DNA of 64,000 nt from Candidatus Binataceae bacterium (GCA_035524375.1 DATKOZ010000035.1:135663-199662); one strand, 5' to 3'; shown: positions 1-62,300, numbered from the stretch's first letter. Notes: a model not told the origin generated them from the letters alone. Made by a program: numbers and translations.

Positions 1-268
1 CGATGACTTCCGCGCCGAAATATTTGGTGACGGTCGCGCGCGTCATGATGTCGCCGGGCCGCTTGTAGGTGATACCGACACTGGCGACCGGCGGAGGGAG
101 CGGCTCGCCGACGTCGTCGGCGGCATCGTCCGCGGTGGTGTCATCGCCCGACGACATCGCGCATCCGGCGAGCGTAAGCGACATGAACATCAGAATCACG
201 GGAATTACCGCGATCCATCGCGGCCCTTTTTTCGTCGCGTCTGTCGCGATCGCTTTGTATGCCAGCAT
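1..268 (-). CDS. Putative lipoprotein; 5' end complete, 3' end runs off the window
   Basis: Reverse-strand ATG at 268 gives MLAYKAIATDATKKGPRWIAVIPVILMFMSLTLAGC: KK n-region, hydrophobic core and an LAGC lipobox. GC3 is strongly biased, as in real genes of this genome. It lies antisense to the listed 69..323 ORF, which I reject. Confidence 0.4.
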   Translation of the reverse strand, partial: MLAYKAIATDATKKGPRWIAVIPVILMFMSLTLAGCAMSSGDDTTADDAADDVGEPLPPPVASVGITYKRPGDIMTRATVTKYFGAEVI

Positions 269-292
269 GATTATCGGTAGTCTTGGCGGCCC

Positions 293-1636
293 ATGGCGGC
301 GAATAATTCCGGCGAGAAGATAGGGCTCCGCCCGCTGCTAATTTATGCGCAAGGACAGGGAAGTCTCAACCTTTGCTCGACGCTGCTCGCCCTCCATTTG
401 CTTTATTTTTATACCGACCGGATGGCGCTGTCCGCGACATTGGCGGGCATCGCGCTGTTTGCCGCGCTTACGCTCGATGCGTTGACCGACCCGCTGATGG
501 GCAACATCTCGGACCGCGCGCGCTTCAAATCGGGGCGACGGCGGCCGTTTTTTATCGCGGCGCTACCGATGGCGATCTGCTACTACCTGCTGCTCGCGCC
601 GCCGGCCGGCGTGAATCTGTTCGTGTGGCTGTTCTGCTTCGATTTCCTGATGCTGACGGCGCGCAAGGTTTACGAGACCGCCTACGGCGCGCTGATGCCG
701 GAACTTACGCTCGATTACGACGAGCGCACGCGCTTGGCGGCGCTGCGCCAGATGTGCGGCACCGTAGGGGATGTCAGCGGCGCGCTGTTGCCGTTTGCGG
801 CGGCATATTTTTTCTCGCGCGGCACGGATTTCAAGGCGGCGGGCGCGATCTGCGCGATCGCGGCGGCGGGAGGCGCGCTGCTGGCGTACCTCGGCTTGCG
901 CGAGCGTCCGGAATTCAGTGCGCTGGAAAGCTCGCGACTGGGGCCGGCGATGAAGGCCGCGATGGCCAACCGTCCCTTTATCATCCTGCTGCTCGCGACC
1001 GGATTTGCGGTGATGGCGATTAATTTCCCGACCGTACTGCTGCGGTTTATAGCCAAATACTGGCTTCACGATGACGACGCGGCGGCGCGGATGCTGGGGG
1101 CATATTTTGCGGGCGGAATCGTTTCCTACCCGTTCTGGATGAAAATCGGCGGGCGGGTGGAAAAGAAGCAGGCGTTTGTGGGCGCGCTTGCGTGCAATGC
1201 GCTGGCTTCGCTCACGTTCATGGCGGTTACGCCGGAGAACATCCGGATCATCATGTTCCTGATGGCGTTCAGCGGATTTTCCGCGATCGGGATGTGGATC
1301 GCGCAAATGTCGTCATCGGCCGACGTAATCGAGTGGGATGAGGAGCGTACCGGGCAGCGGCAGGAGGGCGCCTACGCGGGCCTGATTTCGATGTCGATCA
1401 AGCTTTCGGCCGCAGTCGCGATACTGCTGATCGGCCCGATGCTCAATTGGATCGGCTACCGGCCCGGGATGGCGGCGCTCACGCCGGCGGCGGAGAGCAA
1501 TCTGCGGCTGCTCTTTGCAATTGTGCCGGCGGTTATCTACTCGATGGGCGCGCTGGTCTTCATGCGATATCCGATCACCCGCGACATGCATTTCGAGATG
1601 CGCCAGCGCCTGGCCACCCGCAACGCCCCGGCGTGA
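293..1636 (+). CDS. MFS transporter, glycoside-pentoside-hexuronide (GPH, MelB-like) cation symporter family
   Basis: 447 aa with about 12 predicted TM segments. Has the GPH N-terminal signature LLYFYTDxxAL and a charged loop DRARFKSGRRRPF. The start is uncertain (293 or a downstream in-frame start) because only about 24 bp separate it from the divergent lipoprotein start. Confidence 0.75.
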   Translation: MAANNSGEKIGLRPLLIYAQGQGSLNLCSTLLALHLLYFYTDRMALSATLAGIALFAALTLDALTDPLMGNISDRARFKSGRRRPFFIAALPMAICYYLLLAPPAGVNLFVWLFCFDFLMLTARKVYETAYGALMPELTLDYDERTRLAALRQMCGTVGDVSGALLPFAAAYFFSRGTDFKAAGAICAIAAAGGALLAYLGLRERPEFSALESSRLGPAMKAAMANRPFIILLLATGFAVMAINFPTVLLRFIAKYWLHDDDAAARMLGAYFAGGIVSYPFWMKIGGRVEKKQAFVGALACNALASLTFMAVTPENIRIIMFLMAFSGFSAIGMWIAQMSSSADVIEWDEERTGQRQEGAYAGLISMSIKLSAAVAILLIGPMLNWIGYRPGMAALTPAAESNLRLLFAIVPAVIYSMGALVFMRYPITRDMHFEMRQRLATRNAPA

Positions 1637-1939
1637 AAAGGAGTGTCTGTAATTGGTCAGGAAATTGGGTTCGTTTCGTAATTTTTCTATTTTTCTCAGC
1701 CGAACTCCGATCGAACGGCGTTTTTCTTGCGCACCTGGCAGGCTGGTGTGGCCATCGCTTCCCTCCGCCTTGCGCTTTTCTCATTTCTCAACACCCTGCT
1801 AACCTGAACGCCCGGCATCGGCCATCGGAACGTGCCTAGCCGAAGGGGCGACCGCCGTGATTGTACTCTCTGCGCGCGCCGCACGTCAGGCTGAATCGTT
1901 CAGCTCTGAACTGGCTCGCCAGTAAGAGACGCATTTTGT

Positions 1940-2130
1940 GGATCGTCATCCTGAAGGCTAAGGCCTGAACGAAGTGTAGGGTCTCTCTATCCAAGCCAGC
2001 GAGATGCGCTGGCTTGACCGGTAGGCTTGTCCTGAGCCGTTCGACCTCGCTCAGGGTAAACTCCGCCGAAGGAATCCCGATCCTCTTCCGCGTCGCCGTC
2101 CCCTCCCCCTGTCACCCTGAGCGGAGGCTG
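1940..2130. repeat. Left-flank copies of a short dispersed repeat family (core CGCTCAGGRTGACA and its reverse complement)
   Basis: Copies at about 1945 (cgtcatcctgaagg), about 2057 (cgctcagggtaaac) and about 2108 (ctgtcaccctgagcgg). The same core recurs five times at 5811–6085 and once at about 6700, in the opposite orientation relative to most left-flank copies. Confidence 0.45.
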
Positions 2131-2270
2131 CCGGAGTCGAACGGGTCTCGCGCGCGAAGCCCGCGCAACCCAGTGCGCGGTAGCGCTGATGATGCGCTTT
2201 TATCGCGAGCGCATGACGGTATCGTCACGCGCTGACAATCTTACCACGAACAGGCAGTTTTCTTTCTTTC

Positions 2271-2873
2271 CTATTTGATGCGGCCAAGAATCCCTGTCAC
2301 AAGGTTCTGTCGCGCGAGTTCCGAACCCACAAACGGGTATCGGTTCTGCAGAAAACTCAACGTAATATTGCCTTGTGAGTAATCACGGGCAATTTCAAAT
2401 CTTAATTCGACTAACGGCTCGCTGTTTAACTTCAAAACATCGATCGTATGGGAAATCTGGCCAATCAAGGCATTTTCCAAACCATCTCCCGGCTGCACAT
2501 AAAAGCTCGCACAGTCCAAGACAAACCAGCCCGCTTGAATCGAAAAAGGGTCGAGCAGGCCCATCTTATCGCCCTTATCATGATTAATCCGAGAGCTGCA
2601 AAGCCGGTAATTGCTCCACTCATATGCCAGTTCCGGGTGTCGAGCTTTAGGCAAGAAGTGATCTACCGAGTAATCTGTAGGAAGCCAGCAGGCTGAGTAG
2701 GCGCAGATACTATTGTAGGCTGTTCGTAGGTCTTCTAGGCAGTTTTTCCAGAAACTATTTTTAGAAAATTGCTTGCTTGTGGGGCTTGGGCAGGACGCGA
2801 GAAACGAGAGCCCCGGAGTTCGAACCTTGCTGGCAAATCCGGCCGGTTCTGGCTGAGAGGAAACTGGTATCAC
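2271..2873 (-). CDS. HNH-family nuclease, PtuB/TIGR02646-like
   Basis: 200 aa. HNH motif CAYSACW…VDHFLPK…LCSSRINHDKGDK (Cys pair, D-H, N…K). GTG start overlaps the stop of the upstream ATPase gene (ctGTGAta). Low local GC. Confidence 0.7.
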   Translation of the reverse strand: MIPVSSQPEPAGFASKVRTPGLSFLASCPSPTSKQFSKNSFWKNCLEDLRTAYNSICAYSACWLPTDYSVDHFLPKARHPELAYEWSNYRLCSSRINHDKGDKMGLLDPFSIQAGWFVLDCASFYVQPGDGLENALIGQISHTIDVLKLNSEPLVELRFEIARDYSQGNITLSFLQNRYPFVGSELARQNLVTGILGRIK

Positions 2874-4744
2874 AGCTTCACTCCTTTACTTTCGGCGAAA
2901 AACAGCCACCTAGGCCAAAATTGATCATCCTCAGGAAGGACCTTCCGGAGCTCACCCGATACCCGATGAATAACCCCAGCATCCGGTTTTACCGTCGACA
3001 TAAGTTTCTTGGCCTCTTCCAGAATGGATTCACTTTCCCGTGAGCGAGCCTGGCGCAATTCGAATATTTCCGAGGTCAACCACCTGTCAACGCTGCCGTG
3101 GCGGATGAACGGGATCTCCGTGAATTCAGCTAACCCGCCGCCGGTTAACCGAAGATGGAACAGTTTGTCAGTACTGTCTGAGAATTCCGCCTCGATCGAA
3201 GCTAGAATGAGCGGAGAATGTGTCGCAACTATGGCCTGATACTGAAGTTCGTTACTAAGTATCGTTGCAACTTCCAGAAGTGCTGGTAATGCAACGCGCT
3301 GCCATTTTGGGTGCAAATGTGCTTCTACTTCGTCTATGAGTACCACGAGTTGCCGTTGTGGTGGGCGGTTTGAAAGTTTAGAGTAGATTTTATGTTCGTT
3401 CCAACACCAAACCAGAAGATAGGCCAAGGTAACGATACGTCTAACACCCGCAGACTCGTTAGTGAAAGGAACATCGCCGTAGGGGTGTTTAAGTGTCGGG
3501 ATCTCACGCGCCTCTCCGGGAATTCGGATGGATCGACCCGGCTTCAACGGAGACATATCAGGGGGCGAAAGCTTTTCCAGTACGGCACAGAAGGTCTCAA
3601 AAATCTCGCGCTGGTCGCTGCTATTTTGCCAACGAACCCAATCGCGTAGAAGCCCTTCTATTTGCCCTTCGAGTCCATTTAAAACTTCGTCACGGGAAAC
3701 CACCAATGCCGCAACGCGCTGCTCGCGCTGAATTGGCGAGTGCCGGGCAGGGTCCCACACGGCAAAGGAACCATCGACTCGGGCATAAACAACCAAGCCC
3801 GGAAGAGTTGGCCGCCCCTTGGGCGCGGGCCATTGCTGCGTGTTCCAGTCATAGCGGATTGTTATTGATTCTGGGCGACTCTTGCTGGCAGCGATTTCAA
3901 ACTTGATGCTGACCGCAGGGAGGGACTGGTCGGGATTCGGAAAAGCCGCCCGACCGGCCCAATGGCCGGTTAGCGCCCACCAAGCACATTCAAGGATAAA
4001 GGTTTTCCCGAGGCCGTTATCTCCTGTAATAATCGATAGCCGTTCCGCCGGCTGAAAGGAAAGGTGTGCGCTCGGACCAAGACCCTTCATCTCCAATAGG
4101 CGAAGCGTTCCGCCGACCTCTGGAACGCTGTCTGGCGCCGGCTTGATGACTTGCAGTAGCCTTTTATCAGAGTACGCTTCATCGGTATACAGCTCCTGCT
4201 TCCTATATACGGTAGCAAGGAACAATTTCTCGCGTTCTTCACGCGATACATAGAAATCTGAAAAGAGCCGATCTTCAATCGCCTTCGTCCCAACAGCGGT
4301 CTGCCAATTATGATTCCGATAGATCCAGATCGCTAACCACAATGCTGGTATAGCGTGAACCTTATCTATATCAAGTTCCTGTTTTAGAATATCTATATAG
4401 TTAGTGCTCCAACCCCAGAGATTCGTGTTCCTCGGATGAACAAATGCCCCACCCAAACGCCCCCTTGTGCGCGTACTTTGCGAGCCAGAAAAGGGATACT
4501 TGTGAACAATCCAGCCGCCCTCTCTACTTGAAGTGCGAAAGGGCTGGAAAAAATACTCAGAATTAGGGTTCGGTTTATAGTACGTGTCGAGAAATGCCTC
4601 TTCTTCGTGATTGATTGAAAATGGAATAGCCTTGCCAATCGGCAGTTGCGCCTTCTTGCATACTAGGTACGAGATTCCAAAAAACGGGTGAAGCGAACGA
4701 AGCTTCTCGATTGCCTCCTGAACGATTTCGAATCGGAAATACAT
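2870..4744 (-). CDS. ABC/AAA_21-type ATPase (PtuA-like) with a roughly 230-aa N-terminal domain of unknown function
   Basis: 624 aa. Walker A ITGDNGLGKTF at about aa 238; Walker B/D-loop LVVLIDEVEAHLHP at about aa 465; H-loop ATHSPLIL. The N-terminal 230 aa (W/Y-rich, YFFQPFRTSSREGGWIVHKYPF) match no family I recognise. Its ATG immediately follows the methyltransferase stop (TGAATG). Confidence 0.75.
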   Translation of the reverse strand: MYFRFEIVQEAIEKLRSLHPFFGISYLVCKKAQLPIGKAIPFSINHEEEAFLDTYYKPNPNSEYFFQPFRTSSREGGWIVHKYPFSGSQSTRTRGRLGGAFVHPRNTNLWGWSTNYIDILKQELDIDKVHAIPALWLAIWIYRNHNWQTAVGTKAIEDRLFSDFYVSREEREKLFLATVYRKQELYTDEAYSDKRLLQVIKPAPDSVPEVGGTLRLLEMKGLGPSAHLSFQPAERLSIITGDNGLGKTFILECAWWALTGHWAGRAAFPNPDQSLPAVSIKFEIAASKSRPESITIRYDWNTQQWPAPKGRPTLPGLVVYARVDGSFAVWDPARHSPIQREQRVAALVVSRDEVLNGLEGQIEGLLRDWVRWQNSSDQREIFETFCAVLEKLSPPDMSPLKPGRSIRIPGEAREIPTLKHPYGDVPFTNESAGVRRIVTLAYLLVWCWNEHKIYSKLSNRPPQRQLVVLIDEVEAHLHPKWQRVALPALLEVATILSNELQYQAIVATHSPLILASIEAEFSDSTDKLFHLRLTGGGLAEFTEIPFIRHGSVDRWLTSEIFELRQARSRESESILEEAKKLMSTVKPDAGVIHRVSGELRKVLPEDDQFWPRWLFFAESKGVKL

Positions 4745-5650
4745 TCAGAGGATCGTAGGCGCATCCCGCAGTTGGTCGACCATGTAACGGCAAAAATCGG
4801 CGTGTAGATCTATTCCGGTTGCACAGCGCCCAGAAGCCAACGCCACTCGTAAAGTCGTACCGGAACCTGCAAACGGATCAAGTACGCGGCCTCCAGGTGG
4901 GCAGCCAATTTTGAGACACCTTTCGACAAGTTCATCAGGGAATGGGGCGGTATCAATACCATTGGTGGGCTTCGGCCTTGCCGCAATGGTCCAGACGTCT
5001 TCCTCGACTACAACGTCGGCTAATGCTTGGCGATTAAAAAAGTAGTTTCTTGACTTCGCAAACATGAATACGTTTTCGTAGCTTCGCCGCGGTCGGTCTT
5101 TCACGGCTTCGGCAAGAGCATGTTTGCGATGCCAAATAATAGCACTGCGTAATACCCAATGTCGCTGTGCGAGTTCTAGTGCTGTACGCCAAGGTATTCC
5201 GATTACAGATTTTGGCCGGATGCCAATACCTACGCCGCCGCTCTTATCTACTGCACGTAAGCCGAACCGACGTTTTGCGCTCTTGCGGTCTATGCCCTGC
5301 GACTCGCCTTTGCCAGAATAGTAGGTATCGCCAAGATTCAGGAAGAGGAGACCGTCTTTTCGCAGAACGCGATACACCTCGCTCATGATATCGGCTATAG
5401 AGGTTATATATTCGGTAACTGTGTCTTCATGGCCGATTTGGCCTTGGATGCCATAATCGCGGAGCCAATAATAGGGGGGGGAAGTGACGACACAATCAAA
5501 CTGATCTTCTGGAAGGTGAGCGAGAACCGTCCTTGCGTCACCGCAATACACTTCCCATTTCTGGCGACGCCCGGTTGCGCCACACCAGCGTTTCAAATCT
5601 CTGGAGCACCCGGCAGTTCTGGCAACAAGTGGGCCCTCCCCCAGTCTCAC
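4745..5650 (-). CDS. DNA methyltransferase, beta-class N4-cytosine/N6-adenine (N6_N4_Mtase family)
   Basis: Motif IV VVTSPPYY precedes motif I LDPFAGSGTT (order IV→I, beta class; SPPY favours N4-cytosine). 301 aa; the true start may be downstream of 5650. Confidence 0.85.
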   Translation of the reverse strand: MRLGEGPLVARTAGCSRDLKRWCGATGRRQKWEVYCGDARTVLAHLPEDQFDCVVTSPPYYWLRDYGIQGQIGHEDTVTEYITSIADIMSEVYRVLRKDGLLFLNLGDTYYSGKGESQGIDRKSAKRRFGLRAVDKSGGVGIGIRPKSVIGIPWRTALELAQRHWVLRSAIIWHRKHALAEAVKDRPRRSYENVFMFAKSRNYFFNRQALADVVVEEDVWTIAARPKPTNGIDTAPFPDELVERCLKIGCPPGGRVLDPFAGSGTTLRVALASGRCATGIDLHADFCRYMVDQLRDAPTIL

Positions 5651-5804
5651 AGTTCCACCCTTTGCTGGCTGTGATGGTGGCGCCTGTGTTCGGGGACCAC
5701 GGGGGCGGTTTCGTCGGATTCAACGCGCACCATTTGGTTGTGCTTTATAGCATAGGTGGAAAGAGCGGCCAACTCTGGAGCGGGGTCTCAGCGACGCCGA
5801 ACGG

Positions 5805-6095
5805 GTAGGAATCGCTCGGGATGATAGAAAAAAGCAGCAGCCCGGCGCACCATCGGTTGCGCGCGCTGCGCGCGCGAGATCCTTCGACTCGTGCAACGCT
5901 CGCTCAGGATGACAAAAAGCGCGGGGCGAGGCGCGGAAAAAGATTCGGGATCCCTCGACTTCGGCTCGGGATGACAGAAAGAGGGCGGCATCCGGGATTC
6001 CTCACGCGCCGGCCTCGCGCGGGAATGACATGGAGAGGGGCAGGGCTCAGGGCTTCGGCTCGGATGACCAAAAAGGAGAGACTTCTCGGAGCCAA
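5805..6095. repeat. Degenerate tandem array (about 4.5 units of 60–70 bp) of the CGCTCGGGATGACAGAAAG repeat family
   Basis: Units begin at about 5811 (cgctcgggatgatagaaaaaag), 5890 (cgctcaggatgacaaaaag), 5957 (ggctcgggatgacagaaag), 6019 (cgcgggaatgacatggag) and 6058 (ggctcggatgaccaaaaag). Each is preceded by gat(c/t)cctcgact(t)cg. Confidence 0.55.
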
Positions 6096-6144
6096 ATGGT
6101 TCACGACCTTGCCGGGCCAACTCGGCAGCCGTACAATAACCCGC

Positions 6145-6375
6145 ATGAGCGGCCATCGAGCGCGGGTCGAGAAAGGGAGGCTGATTCTCGACGAGCCGAC
6201 AACACTGCCCGAAGGCACGGTTGTCGAGTTGGTCGCCGACGACGAGGGCGACGACCTTTCCGATAAGGAACGCCGCGCGCTCCACGAAGCGCTATCCGCG
6301 TCTTGGCAATCGGCTGAGCGGGGGCGTCTTCGCCCGGCATCGGCGATTGTGGACGAACTGCGCCATCGCCGGTGA
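6145..6375 (+). CDS. Type II antitoxin (ParD/Phd-like addiction-module antidote)
   Basis: Small acidic protein (…VVELVADDEGDDLSDKERRALHEAL…). Overlaps the downstream ParE-like toxin gene by 4 nt (ATGA). An alternative upstream start at 6064 (MTKKERL…) is possible. Confidence 0.6.
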   Translation: MSGHRARVEKGRLILDEPTTLPEGTVVELVADDEGDDLSDKERRALHEALSASWQSAERGRLRPASAIVDELRHRR

Positions 6376-6677
6376 GCCTACCGGTACGAACCACCCCCGA
6401 AGCGGACGCACAGATCCGCGCGATCGATAAATGGTGGCGCGAGAACCGCACCGCCTCATCCGAGCTGTTCGCTGACGAATTGGCCGCGGCGTTCGACCTC
6501 ATCGGTCATGCACCCGGCATTGGCCGCTCGTATCGGCGTTCTCCCGTATCAAGCACACGCCGCATCCTCCTTAAAGCCGCTCGCTATCACGTTTATTACG
6601 CGTCAAGCACCAATGAGGTGCGAGTGCTCGCAGTGTGGCATGCACGGCGCGGCGTTGGACCACCGCTTCGCGCATAA
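6372..6677 (+). CDS. parE: Type II toxin, ParE/RelE family
   Basis: 101 aa; EADAQIRAIDKWW…RSYRRSPVSSTRRILLKAARYHVYYASSTNEVRVLAVWHARR matches the ParE/RelE fold signature. Confidence 0.8.
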   Translation: MSLPVRTTPEADAQIRAIDKWWRENRTASSELFADELAAAFDLIGHAPGIGRSYRRSPVSSTRRILLKAARYHVYYASSTNEVRVLAVWHARRGVGPPLRA

Positions 6678-6753
6678 GGCGGGCGCGCCCCTGCCAGACA
6701 GGGCAGGATGACAAGCAATAGAGGGGGGAGCGGCGCGGACGATCCTGCATCCG

Positions 6754-7602
6754 TCAGCGCAAGCCCAGCAGCGAACCAACTATGACGCTCAGGAAGAGCG
6801 CCGCGTCCAAGATGACGTGCGACATCATCGATGCTTCCAGACCATGCCGGAGGTAGAGAGCGCCGAGAACGATTCCAACCCAGGTCTGCGGAAGCGCGAG
6901 CGCGACGATCGGGGCCAGGACGTTCCATTGATATGGGGCGGCGAACCCACGGTCCAAATGCACGAGCCCAAACGCATACGCTTGCAGGATGTTCGCGCAC
7001 CATAGAACGCCCCGTTGCGGCCTACCCGCCGGATCGCGCCAGAGTTGCGAAATTGCCAGCGCGCAAAAGGTGAGAACTACCAGTCTGTAGGCAACCTCTT
7101 CGTAGATGGCCGTGCCGGCGCTTGCGCTGAGCGCGCCGAACGCAAGCTGGCCCGGCATTTGTCGAACCGCTGGCGGACTGAAGCCCCGGCTCAATTTCGA
7201 GGGCCCGGAAATGGGCACGAATCTCAACGTGTGTTCCACGATGGCAGCCGCTCGCTCGGCTGCAATGCTGACCAGGGCATACAGCATCGCCGGCTTGAGA
7301 AAGCTGTGTAGCCGCCGGCCGGGCACTTCGTTTCTCAGCCGGGCCGACAACCATGGCGATCCGGGCAAGCCCAACTTCGGCACAAACCATACTGCCGCGG
7401 GCACCAAACACACCAGAATCAACGTCCCTCGATGAAGATGAAGCGGCCCGTTGCCGCTGATTGATTTTATCAACGGCAATTCGAGCGCAATGCCGGCGAC
7501 GGCAAGTCCGATAAAGGCGGCGGACTCCTTCGCCCAATCCAAGAGCCGCCCCGCAGGTGCCGGTGTATCGATTGGTGCGGATGATCCCAGCGGTTGCGTC
7601 AC
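6754..7602 (-). CDS. CPBP family intramembrane glutamic endopeptidase (CAAX protease/Abi-like)
   Basis: Multi-TM protein with the EExxxR motif (YEEVAYRLVV) and the FxxxH motif (AFGLVHLDRG). Confidence 0.75.
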   Translation of the reverse strand: MTQPLGSSAPIDTPAPAGRLLDWAKESAAFIGLAVAGIALELPLIKSISGNGPLHLHRGTLILVCLVPAAVWFVPKLGLPGSPWLSARLRNEVPGRRLHSFLKPAMLYALVSIAAERAAAIVEHTLRFVPISGPSKLSRGFSPPAVRQMPGQLAFGALSASAGTAIYEEVAYRLVVLTFCALAISQLWRDPAGRPQRGVLWCANILQAYAFGLVHLDRGFAAPYQWNVLAPIVALALPQTWVGIVLGALYLRHGLEASMMSHVILDAALFLSVIVGSLLGLR

Positions 7603-8423
7603 TTAATCGGTGGCAGGAAGTCGGGCATGTCCTTGGAGGCCTTGAGCTTCCAGGCCGGTTTGCGCTTCTGCAGGAAGGCGGTCACGCCCTCGTAGGCGTC
7701 GGGCTGCATCCCCGCCCACATGAACGTGCGCGTGTCCATCGCCTCGACTTCGTCGGCCGATTCCTCAGTCATGAACCGGTAGATTAGCCGCTTGGTCATC
7801 GCGACCGAGACCGGGGCGGTGTTATCCGCGATGTCTCGCGCCATCTCGCGGACCTTCGGCATGAATTCCGCGTCGGGCCACACATGGCTGACGACGCCGA
7901 ACTCAAGCGCCTCGCGCGCGCTGATGACCTTTCCCGTCATCAGCAGCTCGTTGGCGCGTGCCAGTCCGATCAAGCGCGGCACCGTCCACATGCTGAGCGC
8001 CTCGGGCGTGATCCCGCGCCGGACGAATACGAAGCCGATCTTGGCGCTCTCCGCCGCCACGCGAATGTCCCACTGCATCGGGAGCGTGATGCCGACGCCG
8101 ACCGCCGGGCCATTGATCGCGCCGATAATCGGTTTGCGGATGTTCCAAGGGCGCACCGAATGCGGCTGGAACGCCTCCCCGGTTTGCGCGCGCTTGTCAT
8201 AGTCGAAGGTCTCGCCGCCGGTGCCAAGGTCGGCGCCCGCGCAGAATGCGCGGCCGGCGCCGGTCACGACGATTACCCGCACATCGTCATTGGTGTCGAA
8301 TTCGGCGAATGCATCGTGCAGTTCCGCGCCCATCCGCTGGGTATAGGCGTTAAGCCGCTCGGGGCGGTTGAGCGTGATGGTTGCGACGCCGTCTTTAATC
8401 TCGGTCAGAACCTGGCTGGCCAT
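7599..8423 (-). CDS. Enoyl-CoA hydratase/isomerase (crotonase) family protein
   Basis: ITLNRPERLNA…VVTGAGRAFCAGADL crotonase signature. Confidence 0.85.
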   Translation of the reverse strand: MASQVLTEIKDGVATITLNRPERLNAYTQRMGAELHDAFAEFDTNDDVRVIVVTGAGRAFCAGADLGTGGETFDYDKRAQTGEAFQPHSVRPWNIRKPIIGAINGPAVGVGITLPMQWDIRVAAESAKIGFVFVRRGITPEALSMWTVPRLIGLARANELLMTGKVISAREALEFGVVSHVWPDAEFMPKVREMARDIADNTAPVSVAMTKRLIYRFMTEESADEVEAMDTRTFMWAGMQPDAYEGVTAFLQKRKPAWKLKASKDMPDFLPPIK

Positions 8424-8543
8424 GCGATGTTCCTCCTGCGGGCAAATCCGCGCTCCGCATTCGCGTTATAGCCCGCAATTGGCCGATTGGAAAAGCACAG
8501 GGACAACGATAGTTGGAAAGAGAGGTCCGGTAACCGACGCGCG

Positions 8544-9503
8544 TCAGCGGCGGACGGGGCGGGCCTCGGCCGTCTCGCTCACCGGATCGCTGGTGCTCAG
8601 CATATCGCGCCATCCTTTTCGGCGGCGGGAACCGCGCGGTTTGGCGCCAAGGCGCTGCAGGTGCAGTTCGAGGACATTCTTTAGTTCCTCGTTCAGGAGC
8701 TCGATTTCGACCTCCTCCGGCATTTTCGGACGCGGCTGGCCTTCGGCGACTCCACCCTGGCGCCGGCGCCCGTAAAGCTGTTGGAGTCGCAATTCCGCCT
8801 TTGCCAGAGAGGCTTTGTATTTGTAATCCAAATGGCCGAGGGCATCGGCGAGTCCGGCCAGCGCGACGAACCGGCGCCGCATCCGCCACCATTCGAACAT
8901 CGACACCAGCATCACGCCGAACATCAAAACCGCAGCCACTCCAATGCTTGCGGCGGTTGCGCGCCACCAGGTAAGGGCCTGCTGGTTCGCCTGCAATTCG
9001 TGGTTATCGGCGGTCAGTTCCTGCACCTGGCTTTGGAGCGATCTGATATCGTCCTGCGCCGACTCGGCCTTTTGGTTGGAATTACGCAATTGAGCCGCGG
9101 TACCGTTCAATTGCGATTGGAGCGTTTCCACCTGAGCGGCGAACGGATTTGGCACCTTAAGGACATCGCCCGCGACCAATTCATCGTCCGGATTAATTTT
9201 ATTGGCATGTGCCAGCGTCTCGGACGGAACTCCGAACATCTTTGCGACGCCGCCGAAAGTATCGCCGGGGCGAACGGTGTAGGGAATCATCGCGGCCGGA
9301 TGCTCGGAAACCGCGGCAGCCGGCGCAGCCGATTCAGTCTTCGGCTGGATTACGGGAGGAGTCTCAGGGCGTTCAACCGGTGCGGAAGGACCAATCGATG
9401 ATTCGGTTACGTCGGTCTGCGCCGTTGCGATTTGGCAGTATGCCGCGAAGGCGACCGCTACCGCCATCCCGGACAATGTCAGTTTGATTCGCCTGAGTCT
9501 CAT
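8544..9503 (-). CDS. LysM domain-containing membrane/periplasmic protein with coiled-coil
   Basis: N-terminal signal/TM; LysM YTVRPGDTFGGVAKMFGVPSETLAHANKI…GDVLKVP; coiled-coil segment; C-terminal TM. Confidence 0.7.
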   Translation of the reverse strand: MRLRRIKLTLSGMAVAVAFAAYCQIATAQTDVTESSIGPSAPVERPETPPVIQPKTESAAPAAAVSEHPAAMIPYTVRPGDTFGGVAKMFGVPSETLAHANKINPDDELVAGDVLKVPNPFAAQVETLQSQLNGTAAQLRNSNQKAESAQDDIRSLQSQVQELTADNHELQANQQALTWWRATAASIGVAAVLMFGVMLVSMFEWWRMRRRFVALAGLADALGHLDYKYKASLAKAELRLQQLYGRRRQGGVAEGQPRPKMPEEVEIELLNEELKNVLELHLQRLGAKPRGSRRRKGWRDMLSTSDPVSETAEARPVRR

Positions 9504-61386: not shown

Positions 61387-61467
61387 ACGCGCGGTGCGAA
61401 TCGTTTGCCTCTCCAAATCGGCTTGACAGGATGATAGGCTCCTAATAGCTTTTTCCCTTTGCTGTTG

Positions 61468-61539
61468 GCCGATGTAGCTCAACGGTAGAGCACCTGATTT
61501 GTAATCAGTAGGTTGCGAGTTCGATTCTCGCCATCGGCT
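61468..61539 (+). tRNA. tRNA-Thr (anticodon TGT)
   Basis: Cloverleaf gccgatg/catcggc acceptor, anticodon loop tttgtaa, T-loop ttcgatt. Confidence 0.8.
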
Positions 61540-61563
61540 TTTGGTCGGCATGATGACCTTAGC

Positions 61564-61649
<86 letters not shown>

Positions 61650-61678
61650 TTGAGCGGAGCGTTTGTTTTGGAGAGAGA

Positions 61679-61754
61679 GCGGGAATAGCTCAGTTGGTAG
61701 AGCGCGAGCCTTCCAAGCTCGGGGTCGCGGGTTCGAGTCCCGTTTCCCGCTCCA
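61679..61754 (+). tRNA. tRNA-Gly (anticodon TCC), CCA encoded
   Basis: Acceptor gcgggaa/ttcccgc, anticodon loop cttccaa, T-loop ttcgagt. Confidence 0.8.
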
Positions 61755-61842
61755 GTTTTACCCGGTCCATCGGATGGACCGGAGATGACGGAACCGCCGC
61801 GAGGATGTTCCTTCGAGGATGTAAAGGGCCGGAACGATGGAT

Positions 61843-61915
<73 letters not shown>

Positions 61916-61965
61916 TTCAAAAATTTTGCGCCGGCGAATCGGCGCGGTGATATTCGAGGTCGAGT

Positions 61966-62121
61966 ATGAGAGATTTAATCGGACTTGCGTGCGACGGATG
62001 CAAACGGCGCAATTACATAACCAGCAAGAACAAAAAGAAGCAGACCGACAAGTTTGCCATTAAGAAGTTTTGCCCCAACTGCCGCACCCATACGGTGCAT
62101 CGCGAGAGCAAGATTTCTTGA
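61966..62121 (+). CDS. rpmG: 50S ribosomal protein L33
   Basis: 51-aa ORF MRDLIGLACDGCKRRNYITSKNKKKQTDKFAIKKFCPNCRTHTVHRESKIS with a C4 zinc ribbon (CDGC…CPNC). Below the 60-aa cutoff of the supplied ORF track. Confidence 0.85.
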   Translation: MRDLIGLACDGCKRRNYITSKNKKKQTDKFAIKKFCPNCRTHTVHRESKIS

Positions 62122-62223
62122 GAGGCACGGGCTTACGCGGAAAATGGGTCGCGTCCGGCCGGACTTCGGTTGGCACGCGCGAATCGTTTCGAAACGGCGC
62201 CCCTTTTGAGGAGATGATGATCA

Positions 62224-62300
62224 GGGTCAGTAGCTCTAATTGGCAGAGCATCGGACTCCAAATCCGAGGGTTGCAGGTTCGAATCCTGCCTGGCCCGCCA
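62224..62300 (+). tRNA. tRNA-Trp (anticodon CCA), CCA encoded
   Basis: Acceptor gggtcag/ctggccc (one G·U), anticodon loop ctccaaa, T-loop ttcgaat. Confidence 0.75.

Follow-up and report, generated by a model that had tools for sequence, protein, structure and literature searches.

Septu is among the commonest bacterial defense systems, and the way in which its stand-alone form senses infection is partly understood. To our knowledge, the retron is the one documented add-on sensor of Septu. The Septu systems characterized so far act by abortive infection, respond to phage-protein triggers, and either nick DNA or cleave tRNA-Tyr. Published descriptions cover stand-alone Septu, the retron-linked Septu type II, and a co-occurring Hma system with a 5-methylcytosine (m5C) methylase. 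In the present work, we analyzed a stretch of 64,000 nucleotides of DNA (hereafter, the window) from a Candidatus Binataceae bacterium (GCA_035524375.1 DATKOZ010000035.1:135663-199662). Positions 2271–5650 of its minus strand hold a three-gene cassette that encodes a DNA methyltransferase (MTase), a long form of the ATP-binding cassette (ABC)-type ATPase PtuA, and the HNH nuclease PtuB. The ATPase shows 100% identity to an NCBI protein of this bacterium, which belongs to the phylum Binatota and is represented by a metagenome-assembled genome. We lean towards the view that a Septu module has here been converted to a methylation-gated system resembling restriction–modification. The genes of the cassette and their conserved parts are listed below.

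4745..5596 (longest open reading frame (ORF) to the GTG at 5650), minus strand: MTase gene, a beta-class N4/N6 DNA methyltransferase, probably of the N4-methylcytosine (m4C) type (Pfam, PADLOC, homolog lengths)
5471..5485, minus strand: MTase catalytic motif IV, TSPPY, invariant in 52/52 cassette MTases
4853..4873, minus strand: MTase motif I, FAGSGTT, which binds S-adenosylmethionine (SAM); F, G, G, T, and T are invariant in alignment A3 (sequence reading)
4742..4747, minus strand: junction of the MTase stop and the PtuA start, TGAATG (sequence reading)
2870..4744, minus strand: long-form PtuA gene, 624 amino acids (aa), ATG start; a novel N-terminal domain, an ABC-type ATPase, and a C-terminal helical region (PADLOC, Pfam, AlphaFold2/Foldseek)
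4100..4744, minus strand: PtuA N-terminal domain (N-domain), aa 1–215, the proposed reader of methylation state
4478..4480, minus strand: Q89 codon, in the N-domain loop SGSQSTRTRG; Q in 62/62 MTase-positive long forms
4436..4438, minus strand: H103 codon, in the N-domain; H in 61/62 MTase-positive long forms against 4/9 MTase-less ones
4001..4024, minus strand: PtuA Walker A, GDNGLGKT (K247), invariant in 31 homologs (sequence reading)
3329..3346, minus strand: PtuA Walker B, VVLIDE (D471, E472), invariant in 31 homologs (sequence reading)
3212..3226, minus strand: PtuA H-loop, ATHSP (H509); T508, H509, S510, and P511 are invariant (sequence reading)
2870..2873, minus strand: overlap of the PtuA stop and the PtuB start, GTGA (sequence reading), shared by 45/52 homologous loci
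2271..2873, minus strand: PtuB, HNH nuclease gene, 200 aa, GTG start (PADLOC PDLC00348)
2583..2660, minus strand: PtuB HNH catalytic core, H72 … N88 … N97; H72, N88, N97, and K100 are at least 98% conserved across 52 loci

An initial annotation, made from the sequence of the window, had described three minus-strand genes packed stop to start. Such packing was verified for the ORFs at 2271–2873, 2870–4744, and 4745–5650: the MTase stop TGA (4747–4745) abuts the ATPase ATG (4744–4742) in the same frame, and the GTGA junction lets the PtuA and PtuB genes overlap by 4 nucleotides. This overlap is found again in 45 of 52 complete homologous loci, and therefore the packing does not reflect chance. 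The ATPase motifs were likewise as claimed (Walker A, ITGDNGLGKTF; Walker B, VLIDEVEAHLHP; H-loop, ATHSP), and all of them are invariant in 31 homologs. The assignment of the ATPase and HNH genes as a Septu PtuA/PtuB pair was confirmed by full-length matches. PADLOC model PDLC00270 aligns with PtuA over positions 1–624 of 627 (E = 1.8e-230), and Pfam detects AAA_21 (1.5e-14) and AAA_15 (2.2e-12). The AlphaFold2 model of PtuA has a predicted local distance difference test (pLDDT) score of 87, and when it was compared with the PDB by Foldseek, each of the 50 top places went to a PtuA chain (E = 6e-14 to 1e-10, probability 1.00), from E. coli Septu or type I-A retrons. The extra domain and flexible arms keep the template modeling (TM) scores of these matches modest, at 0.4–0.57.

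PtuB matches PADLOC model PDLC00348 over positions 1–192 of 198 (E = 4e-62), and across its 200 aa the only domain matches are to HNH/PtuB-family models. Scores with three other models lie under the curated cut-offs: 32.5 against 52.15 bits for TIGR02646, 32 against 150 for NCBIfam PtuB, and 17.7 against 22 for Pfam HNH_4. The label "TIGR02646-style" in the initial annotation thus does not hold as regards the TIGR02646 score, and it is the PADLOC PtuB model that the protein matches end to end. The equivalogs of type I-A retrons are also far from reached (NF041760 PtuA, 59.9 bits against 500; NF041761 PtuB, 32 against 150). The locus has an ABC-type PtuA, the PtuA fold, and an HNH gene for PtuB directly downstream, as Septu does; it departs from the two-gene form with the ATPase at the PtuA N-terminus by its 215-aa extra domain and its conserved MTase gene. 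Because of this N-terminal extra domain and the third gene, the cassette is a Septu variant and not the canonical form. PADLOC would report the locus as Septu type I plus an unassigned type II methyltransferase. Since the PADLOC models match end to end, the long PtuA, including its N-terminal part, is already in the Septu catalog.

The MTase matches Pfam N6_N4_Mtase (PF01555) at 1.4e-37, with 130.2 bits against a gathering threshold of 26.7, and the PADLOC MTase_II model PDLC03387 at 4e-79. Its TSPPY motif lies N-terminal to FAGSGTT, which is the motif order of the beta class, and the earlier reading of a beta-class SPPY methyltransferase upstream of the ATPase was correct in this respect. The start codon is probably the in-frame TTG at 5596, giving a product of 283 aa, rather than the GTG at 5650 (301 aa): of the 120 closest MTase homologs, most have 281–310 aa and more have 283 aa than any other length, the first 18 codons of the longest ORF (5596–5650, GTG at 5650) are unconserved, and the homologs favor the TTG. 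Among solved structures, TTHA0409 (2zie) and the N4-cytosine MTase 8s9m are the nearest relatives; TSPPY is found in both of them, and the adenine enzymes RsrI, MboIIA, and CcrM match as well. The S-P-P-Y motif is characteristic of N4-cytosine enzymes. Judging from these motifs and relatives, the product of the enzyme is probably m4C. Of the three proteins, the MTase shows the strongest conservation, with a mean pairwise identity of 0.61 against 0.43 for PtuA and 0.43 for PtuB. Because its catalytic motifs are invariant, methylation itself appears to be under selection, beyond the mere presence of the protein.

For comparison, we assembled 80 loci encoding PtuA relatives, with one genome per species, including 73 informative long-form loci. 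The set spans Acidobacteriota, Chloroflexota, Desulfobacterota, Planctomycetota, Nitrospirota, Cyanobacteriota, Bacillota, Bacteroidota, Spirochaetota, Pseudomonadota, and others; part of the loci belong to metagenome-assembled genomes built from long reads, in which frameshift errors are possible. Cultured carriers of the MTase include Pelotomaculum propionicicum MGP (L018) and Trinickia soli GP25-8 (L049). "MTase-less" denotes a locus with no intact MTase adjacent to it, the rest of the genome being outside this count. A homolog of the MTase, 53–75% identical to that of the window, lies directly upstream of the long PtuA gene in 64/73 informative loci, which belong to more than 15 phyla, and PtuB is directly downstream of the long PtuA in nearly all of them. 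When loci were selected through the MTase (seven places, found with four MTase homologs), the MTase was followed by a long ORF for an AAA_15/AAA_21-type ATPase at 7/7 places. Five of the seven places have this ORF intact (626–629 aa); a frameshift splits it at one place, and at one the contig ends within it. An ORF of approximately 150–215 aa comes next wherever the contig continues. In IMG/VR there are only two close MTase copies, each followed by a long PtuA in the order of the cassette; searches of IMG/VR with two peptide patterns returned no orphan phage copies of the MTase clade, a result that is uninformative on counter-defense. The plasmid collection contains only short-form PtuA without MTase.

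The MTase and PtuA distance matrices are correlated with r = 0.82 (Mantel p = 0.001), and those of PtuA and PtuB with 0.66. Chance adjacency of the MTase is ruled out by the comparative counts. We found no conserved fourth gene or regulator in the flanks of the 80 loci, where the best flanking family occurs at 7/80 loci and the flanks are unrelated between loci. To judge from this gene content, the cassette is a self-contained, horizontally mobile three-gene unit. One of the loci, L023, is decaying, with a frameshifted MTase (379–1202) and a truncated PtuB (3070–3249).

The N-domain, too, is linked to the MTase. No Pfam family matches PtuA aa ~1–215. The initial annotation had reported an unknown domain of roughly 230 aa ahead of the ATPase core; its size is about right, and the part that fell is its novelty as sequence, as the PADLOC PtuA model already covers it. 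The weak fold matches of the N-domain are consistently to winged-helix DNA-binding domains; among solved structures the domain has no detectable relative, and similarity to the N-terminal domains known from McrB or LlaJI is likewise not detectable. When 1.84 billion representative proteins were searched with a profile of the domain, 279 matched. In all near-full-length matches, the domain is at the N-terminus or a few residues from it, and the proteins are mostly 610–660 aa long; outside this range are one group of 564–605 aa, fused to an AAA_5 ATPase, and fragments. As far as this search can tell, the N-domain is exclusive to the MTase-associated Septu and one sister system.

Loss of the N-domain goes together with loss of the MTase. 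The four short PtuA forms in the sample that have no N-domain are also without the MTase (4/4), as are the plasmid short forms. In a neighbor-joining tree of the ATPase core (396 alignment columns, bootstrapped, rooted on a plasmid short form), the long forms are monophyletic in 0/100 replicates, and two short forms fall inside a clade of MTase-positive long forms with 91% bootstrap support. This topology implies that the N-domain and the MTase were lost jointly.

Nine long forms have no intact adjacent MTase, namely the Anabaena/Dolichospermum clade, L028, L056, L074, and L080, the last of which retains MTase remnants. Q89 is substituted in 7/9 of them (H, H, H, H, E, K, and D, in several independent lineages), whereas conserved residues of the ATPase core are retained at 94–100% in the MTase-less long forms. 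The PtuB HNH core is also intact in MTase-less and short-form loci, and the nine MTase-less long-form loci keep all PtuB catalytic residues. Fisher tests gave p = 2.7e-8 for Q89 and 5.5e-5 for H103, values obtained from tests that ignore phylogeny. Applied prospectively to independent representatives, a rule based on Q89 held for two of two proteins: according to it, no MTase would lie upstream of P0314 (Q to H) or of P0357 (loop deleted), and none does. We propose that, after MTase loss, lineages survive either by deletion of the reader, giving the short forms, or by decay of the reader loop.

Among individual loci, L080 carries only MTase fragments (5575–6004) beside intact PtuA and PtuB, and its PtuA has Q89H and H103R; in its sisters L047 and L050 (100% bootstrap), the MTase is intact and both Q and H are retained. 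The Anabaena/Dolichospermum clade of long-form PtuA–PtuB loci (L033, L037, L041, L043, and L044, with L030 and L039) has no adjacent MTase, and insertions and substitutions occur in its Q89 loop. A conserved gene of 169 aa (MTQELMELR…) lies upstream in four loci of this clade. Anabaena azotica SJ-1 (NZ_CP178454.1) is one of the MTase-less carriers.

The sister system was found through the N-domain. In four proteins of 564–605 aa, the domain is fused to a McrB-like AAA_5 ATPase, with Q89 kept in 4/4 and H103 in 3/4. One protein that keeps Q89 and is not a PtuA, P0353, shares 31% identity with residues 8–213 of the PtuA of the window (E = 1e-22). At all six loci with enough DNA, the gene for the AAA_5 fusion is convergent with a two-gene unit made of an MTase gene and then a gene for a protein of approximately 510 aa. 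The full-length identity of the MTases of this system to that of the window is 48–52% (for L108, a shorter pairwise alignment gives 56%), and the copy of L109 matches PADLOC PDLC03387. The ~510-aa protein has an invariant PD…D-x-K motif and a weak Pfam match to McrC, and a PDB sequence search with it returned no matches. On the weak McrBC Pfam match and the PD…DxK motif, we regard it as a candidate PD-(D/E)xK nuclease.

AAA_5 relatives without the N-domain have the MTase clade nearby in 0/69 cases, against 6/6 for the loci with the N-domain, and so the N-domain and the MTase clade accompany each other on two NTPase–nuclease effectors that are unrelated. In enzymes of the McrB family, DNA is read by the N-terminal domain. 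The re-use of the pair, taken together with this precedent, is the strongest argument that the N-domain reads the mark made by the MTase. The loci of the sister system (L108–L120; e.g., L109:652–4946 and L116:6001–10064) are rare, with eight full-length cases in a metagenome scan, and PADLOC misses the system except through the N-domain part of a PtuA model.

Taken together, these comparisons establish, at the level of sequence, what the genes encode, that their catalytic motifs are intact, that the MTase and the N-domain are inherited and lost together, that residues are coupled to MTase presence, and that the pair is re-used as a module. The initial annotation had coupled the methyltransferase to the ATPase/HNH pair from this one locus, and its proposal is supported by the upstream position in 64/73 loci, the co-inheritance at r = 0.82, the loss with the N-domain, the Q89 coupling, and the McrBC-like effector. 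In the methylation-gated scheme towards which we lean, the MTase, encoded by the first gene, would mark a specific motif in host DNA, probably as m4C. The ~215-aa N-domain of PtuA would be the matching reader and report unmarked DNA, the Q89/H103 loop being the part through which it works. The ABC-ATPase oligomer would relay the signal, and the bound HNH nuclease PtuB would then cut nucleic acid. Accepting this scheme, we infer DNA binding by the N-domain, unmethylated DNA as the trigger, m4C as the mark, and invading DNA as the substrate of PtuB; we also infer the "ATP-dependent HNH restriction" that the initial annotation assigned to the cassette. More tentatively, and without quite regarding it as probable, we propose that the TSPPY MTase clade and the ~215-aa domain form a portable writer–reader pair, which would operate on at least two unrelated NTPase–nuclease effectors and yield restriction–modification that spares methylated self.

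Several observations weigh against the methylation-gated scheme. Eight long-form loci have no adjacent MTase and nevertheless keep PtuA and PtuB intact, and two of these (L028 and L033) keep both Q89 and H103. The disregard of phylogeny in the Fisher tests is a weakness of the residue coupling. Specific co-evolution of the MTase with the N-domain was not discriminated by partial Mantel analysis, in which the N-domain (0.36) and the ATPase core (0.52) both co-vary with the MTase; as the MTase tracks the core at least as closely as the N-domain, the covariation is co-inheritance and not specific co-evolution. In addition, characterized Septu acts by abortive infection, and the effector may therefore do something other than restrict incoming DNA.

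The main alternative is a guard or toxin–antitoxin arrangement, which we consider unlikely. Here the MTase protein itself, or methylated host DNA held by the N-domain, would keep PtuAB off, with no marking of incoming DNA involved; PtuAB would be released, to kill the cell or arrest it, by phage factors directed at methyltransferases or at the supply of SAM, or by those that break down host DNA. Such an arrangement has parallels, as PtuAB is a toxic module that other partners restrain (in retrons, the complex of reverse transcriptase and multicopy single-stranded DNA (msDNA) is the antitoxin) and the anti-restriction protein Ocr is the trigger of PARIS, which is a related system with an ABC ATPase. 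A protein–protein or DNA-tether interface would account just as well for the co-inheritance at r = 0.82 and for the way in which the N-domain loop changes after MTase loss. However, TSPPY and FxGxG are invariant, and a purely structural antitoxin would not need catalytic motifs. The pair of MTase and N-domain also serves the McrBC-like module, for which the precedent is an N-terminal DNA reader, and there the MTase is transcribed with the nuclease and convergent to the N-domain gene, a layout typical of restriction–modification.

Two independent systems may simply co-travel, an orphan or type II-like MTase beside an ordinary Septu whose N-domain has an internal role in oligomerization or trigger sensing. 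PADLOC does sort the parts separately into PtuA/PtuB and MTase_II, the eight long-form loci presumably function without an adjacent MTase, and defense genes often cluster. Against this stand the constant position and order of the MTase next to PtuA in 64/73 loci, over more than 15 phyla and in unrelated contexts, and the fact that the association is seen from both PtuA-selected and MTase-selected loci. The N-domain and the MTase are lost jointly, Q89 is tied to MTase presence, and the pair recurs with another effector in 6/6 loci against 0/69 controls. Given these comparative counts, mere co-location is very unlikely. We give equally little credence to a type IV-like system, in which the N-domain would recognize methylated DNA for attack and the MTase would act on invading DNA. 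The N-domain does hold the position of the McrB N-terminal domain in the sister architecture, and in classical McrBC that domain reads methylated cytosine. A co-expressed MTase encoded by the first gene would, however, methylate the host chromosome and bring about self-targeting, and the loss of Q89 after MTase loss is better explained by relief from self-targeting of unmethylated DNA or by relaxed selection.

The setting of the cassette in the window has its own features, the principal ones being as follows.

5744..5772, minus strand: possible sigma-70-like operon promoter, TTGGCC–17 nucleotides–TATAAA (our own reading of the sequence)
5800..6080, minus strand: upstream flank array of ~5 units resembling repetitive extragenic palindromes or miniature inverted-repeat transposable elements (REP/MITE-like), core GTCATCCYGAGC (repeat analysis)
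2095..2185, plus strand: downstream flank REP/MITE-like unit, inverted relative to the upstream copies (repeat analysis)

At 5744–5772, the promoter scanner gave no call, as its rule demands T at the last position of the -10 hexamer. An Rfam scan of positions 1–9000 of the window matched no RNA families, and hence no retron non-coding RNA, and no reverse transcriptase gene is present in the cassette. The cassette has a GC content of 51.1% against 60.4% for the window and is the lowest-GC 3.4-kb stretch of it; the low-GC island described in the initial annotation is therefore real, and the values given there (47% and 65%) are to be replaced. The cassette is bracketed by inverted copies of the REP/MITE-like unit (core GTCATCCYGAGC…GTCGAAGGATCTCGCGCGCG), one long copy downstream and approximately five in tandem upstream. 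The core is absent elsewhere in the 64-kb window (4 matches against 0.96 expected), and such repeats stand beside only 2/80 related loci. They may mark an insertion site or a local recombination hotspot.

Directly upstream of the cassette and on the opposite strand lies a toxin–antitoxin pair (6145–6677, plus strand). The ParE-family toxin ORF (6372–6677, plus strand; Pfam ParE_toxin, 1.6e-9) overlaps by 4 nucleotides with a likely antitoxin ORF of 76 aa (6145–6375, plus strand), for which the only match is a weak AF2212-like one. An ORF of 184 aa called at 5821–6375 is probably over-extended through the repeat array. The flanking genes (293–1636 and 6754–9503) are housekeeping ones, encoding an MFS_2 transporter, an Rce1-like CPBP protease, an enoyl-CoA hydratase, and a LysM protein. 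Within approximately 8 kb of the cassette there is no integrase, transposase, or tRNA gene, so that the low-GC island has no recognizable mobility gene. A tRNA cluster at 61467–62300, unrelated to the cassette, has the order Thr(TGT), Tyr(GTA), Gly(TCC), Thr(GGT), and then Trp(CCA), an order typical of the tuf/secE–nusG region.

The full texts of PubMed Central open-access articles and bioRxiv preprints yielded no description of a Septu coupled to an N6_N4-type methyltransferase or of its N-domain. The initial annotation had set the three-gene arrangement apart from canonical Septu, and its novelty holds for the MTase link and not for the PtuA/PtuB pair, which, with the N-domain, is already in PADLOC. 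The PtuA/PtuB effector is thus catalogued Septu, and what appears to be new is the conserved coupling of the MTase, the role proposed for the N-domain, and the re-use of the pair on a McrBC-like effector. The cassette points to a second, widespread solution for a Septu sensor, one found across more than 15 phyla and in several hundred clusters of proteins. If the methylation-gated scheme is correct, an ABC-ATPase/HNH type would join the known restriction–modification architectures, the domain that PADLOC folds silently into "PtuA" would be explained, and Q89 and H103 would be functional residues that can be tested. That the writer–reader pair also occurs with a McrBC-like effector suggests that self-recognition by methylation can be exchanged as a module. 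A portable pair, if it exists, would make effectors of the abortive-infection type or modification-dependent effectors spare methylated self DNA; it would represent a new class of ATP-dependent restriction–modification, in which methylation-based discrimination can be added to effectors as a module. Such a module matters for the annotation of defense islands and for the prediction of gene-transfer barriers in uncultured soil and sediment bacteria.

Compared with known systems, the cassette resembles Septu type I (E. coli, PDB 8EE4/8EEA) in its ABC-type PtuA and HNH PtuB, its tight operon, and its intact catalytic motifs. It differs in that PtuA of Septu type I starts with the ATPase and has its Walker A lysine near residue 43, while K247 of the cassette follows a 215-aa extra domain, and in its dedicated, co-inherited methyltransferase. 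The known triggers of Septu type I are phage proteins and ATP depletion, and not methylation status. MADS and Menshen are also multi-gene systems that combine a methyltransferase with ABC/AAA ATPases and nucleases, and the Menshen paper speculates that a methylase may prime an ATPase–nuclease system. The cassette is not MADS: MAD3 scores 16.5 bits against a cut-off of 420, mad2 gives an E of 2.4e-17 against 4e-79 for MTase_II, and the gene content differs. Nor is it PARIS, whose AriA models give an E of 1e-18 against 1.8e-230 for PtuA and whose AriB is a TOPRIM/DUF4435 protein, whereas the partner in the cassette is an HNH protein.

With type II restriction–modification, the cassette shares a beta-class N6_N4 MTase that matches PADLOC MTase_II and adjoins a nuclease gene. 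In contrast to type II, it has an obligatory, conserved ABC ATPase with intact Walker motifs, its PtuB has no recognizable DNA-recognition domain of its own, and its MTase is unusually uniform across phyla (mean pairwise identity 61%), where type II systems diversify their specificity. NTP-dependent restriction–modification of the LlaJI type is presumably alike in logic, with a protective MTase, an NTPase with an N-terminal DNA reader, and a separate nuclease. A layout of the LlaJI/McrBC type is present in the sister architecture (the N-domain–AAA_5 protein, the PD-(D/E)xK protein, and the MTase clade), which occurs in other genomes only. The McrBC/LlaJI motor is an AAA+ GTPase and the nuclease is of the PD-(D/E)xK type, whereas the motor of the cassette is an ABC ATPase (Rad50/OLD-like) and its nuclease is HNH. 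Septu type II, that is, the type I-A retrons (Ec78/Eco7 and Ec83/Eco4), is alike in that PtuAB is controlled by an added upstream sensor or antitoxin module, and there, too, PtuA gains extra structural elements that contact the added module. The module of the retrons is a reverse transcriptase with msDNA, whereas that of the cassette is a DNA methyltransferase with an N-terminal protein domain.

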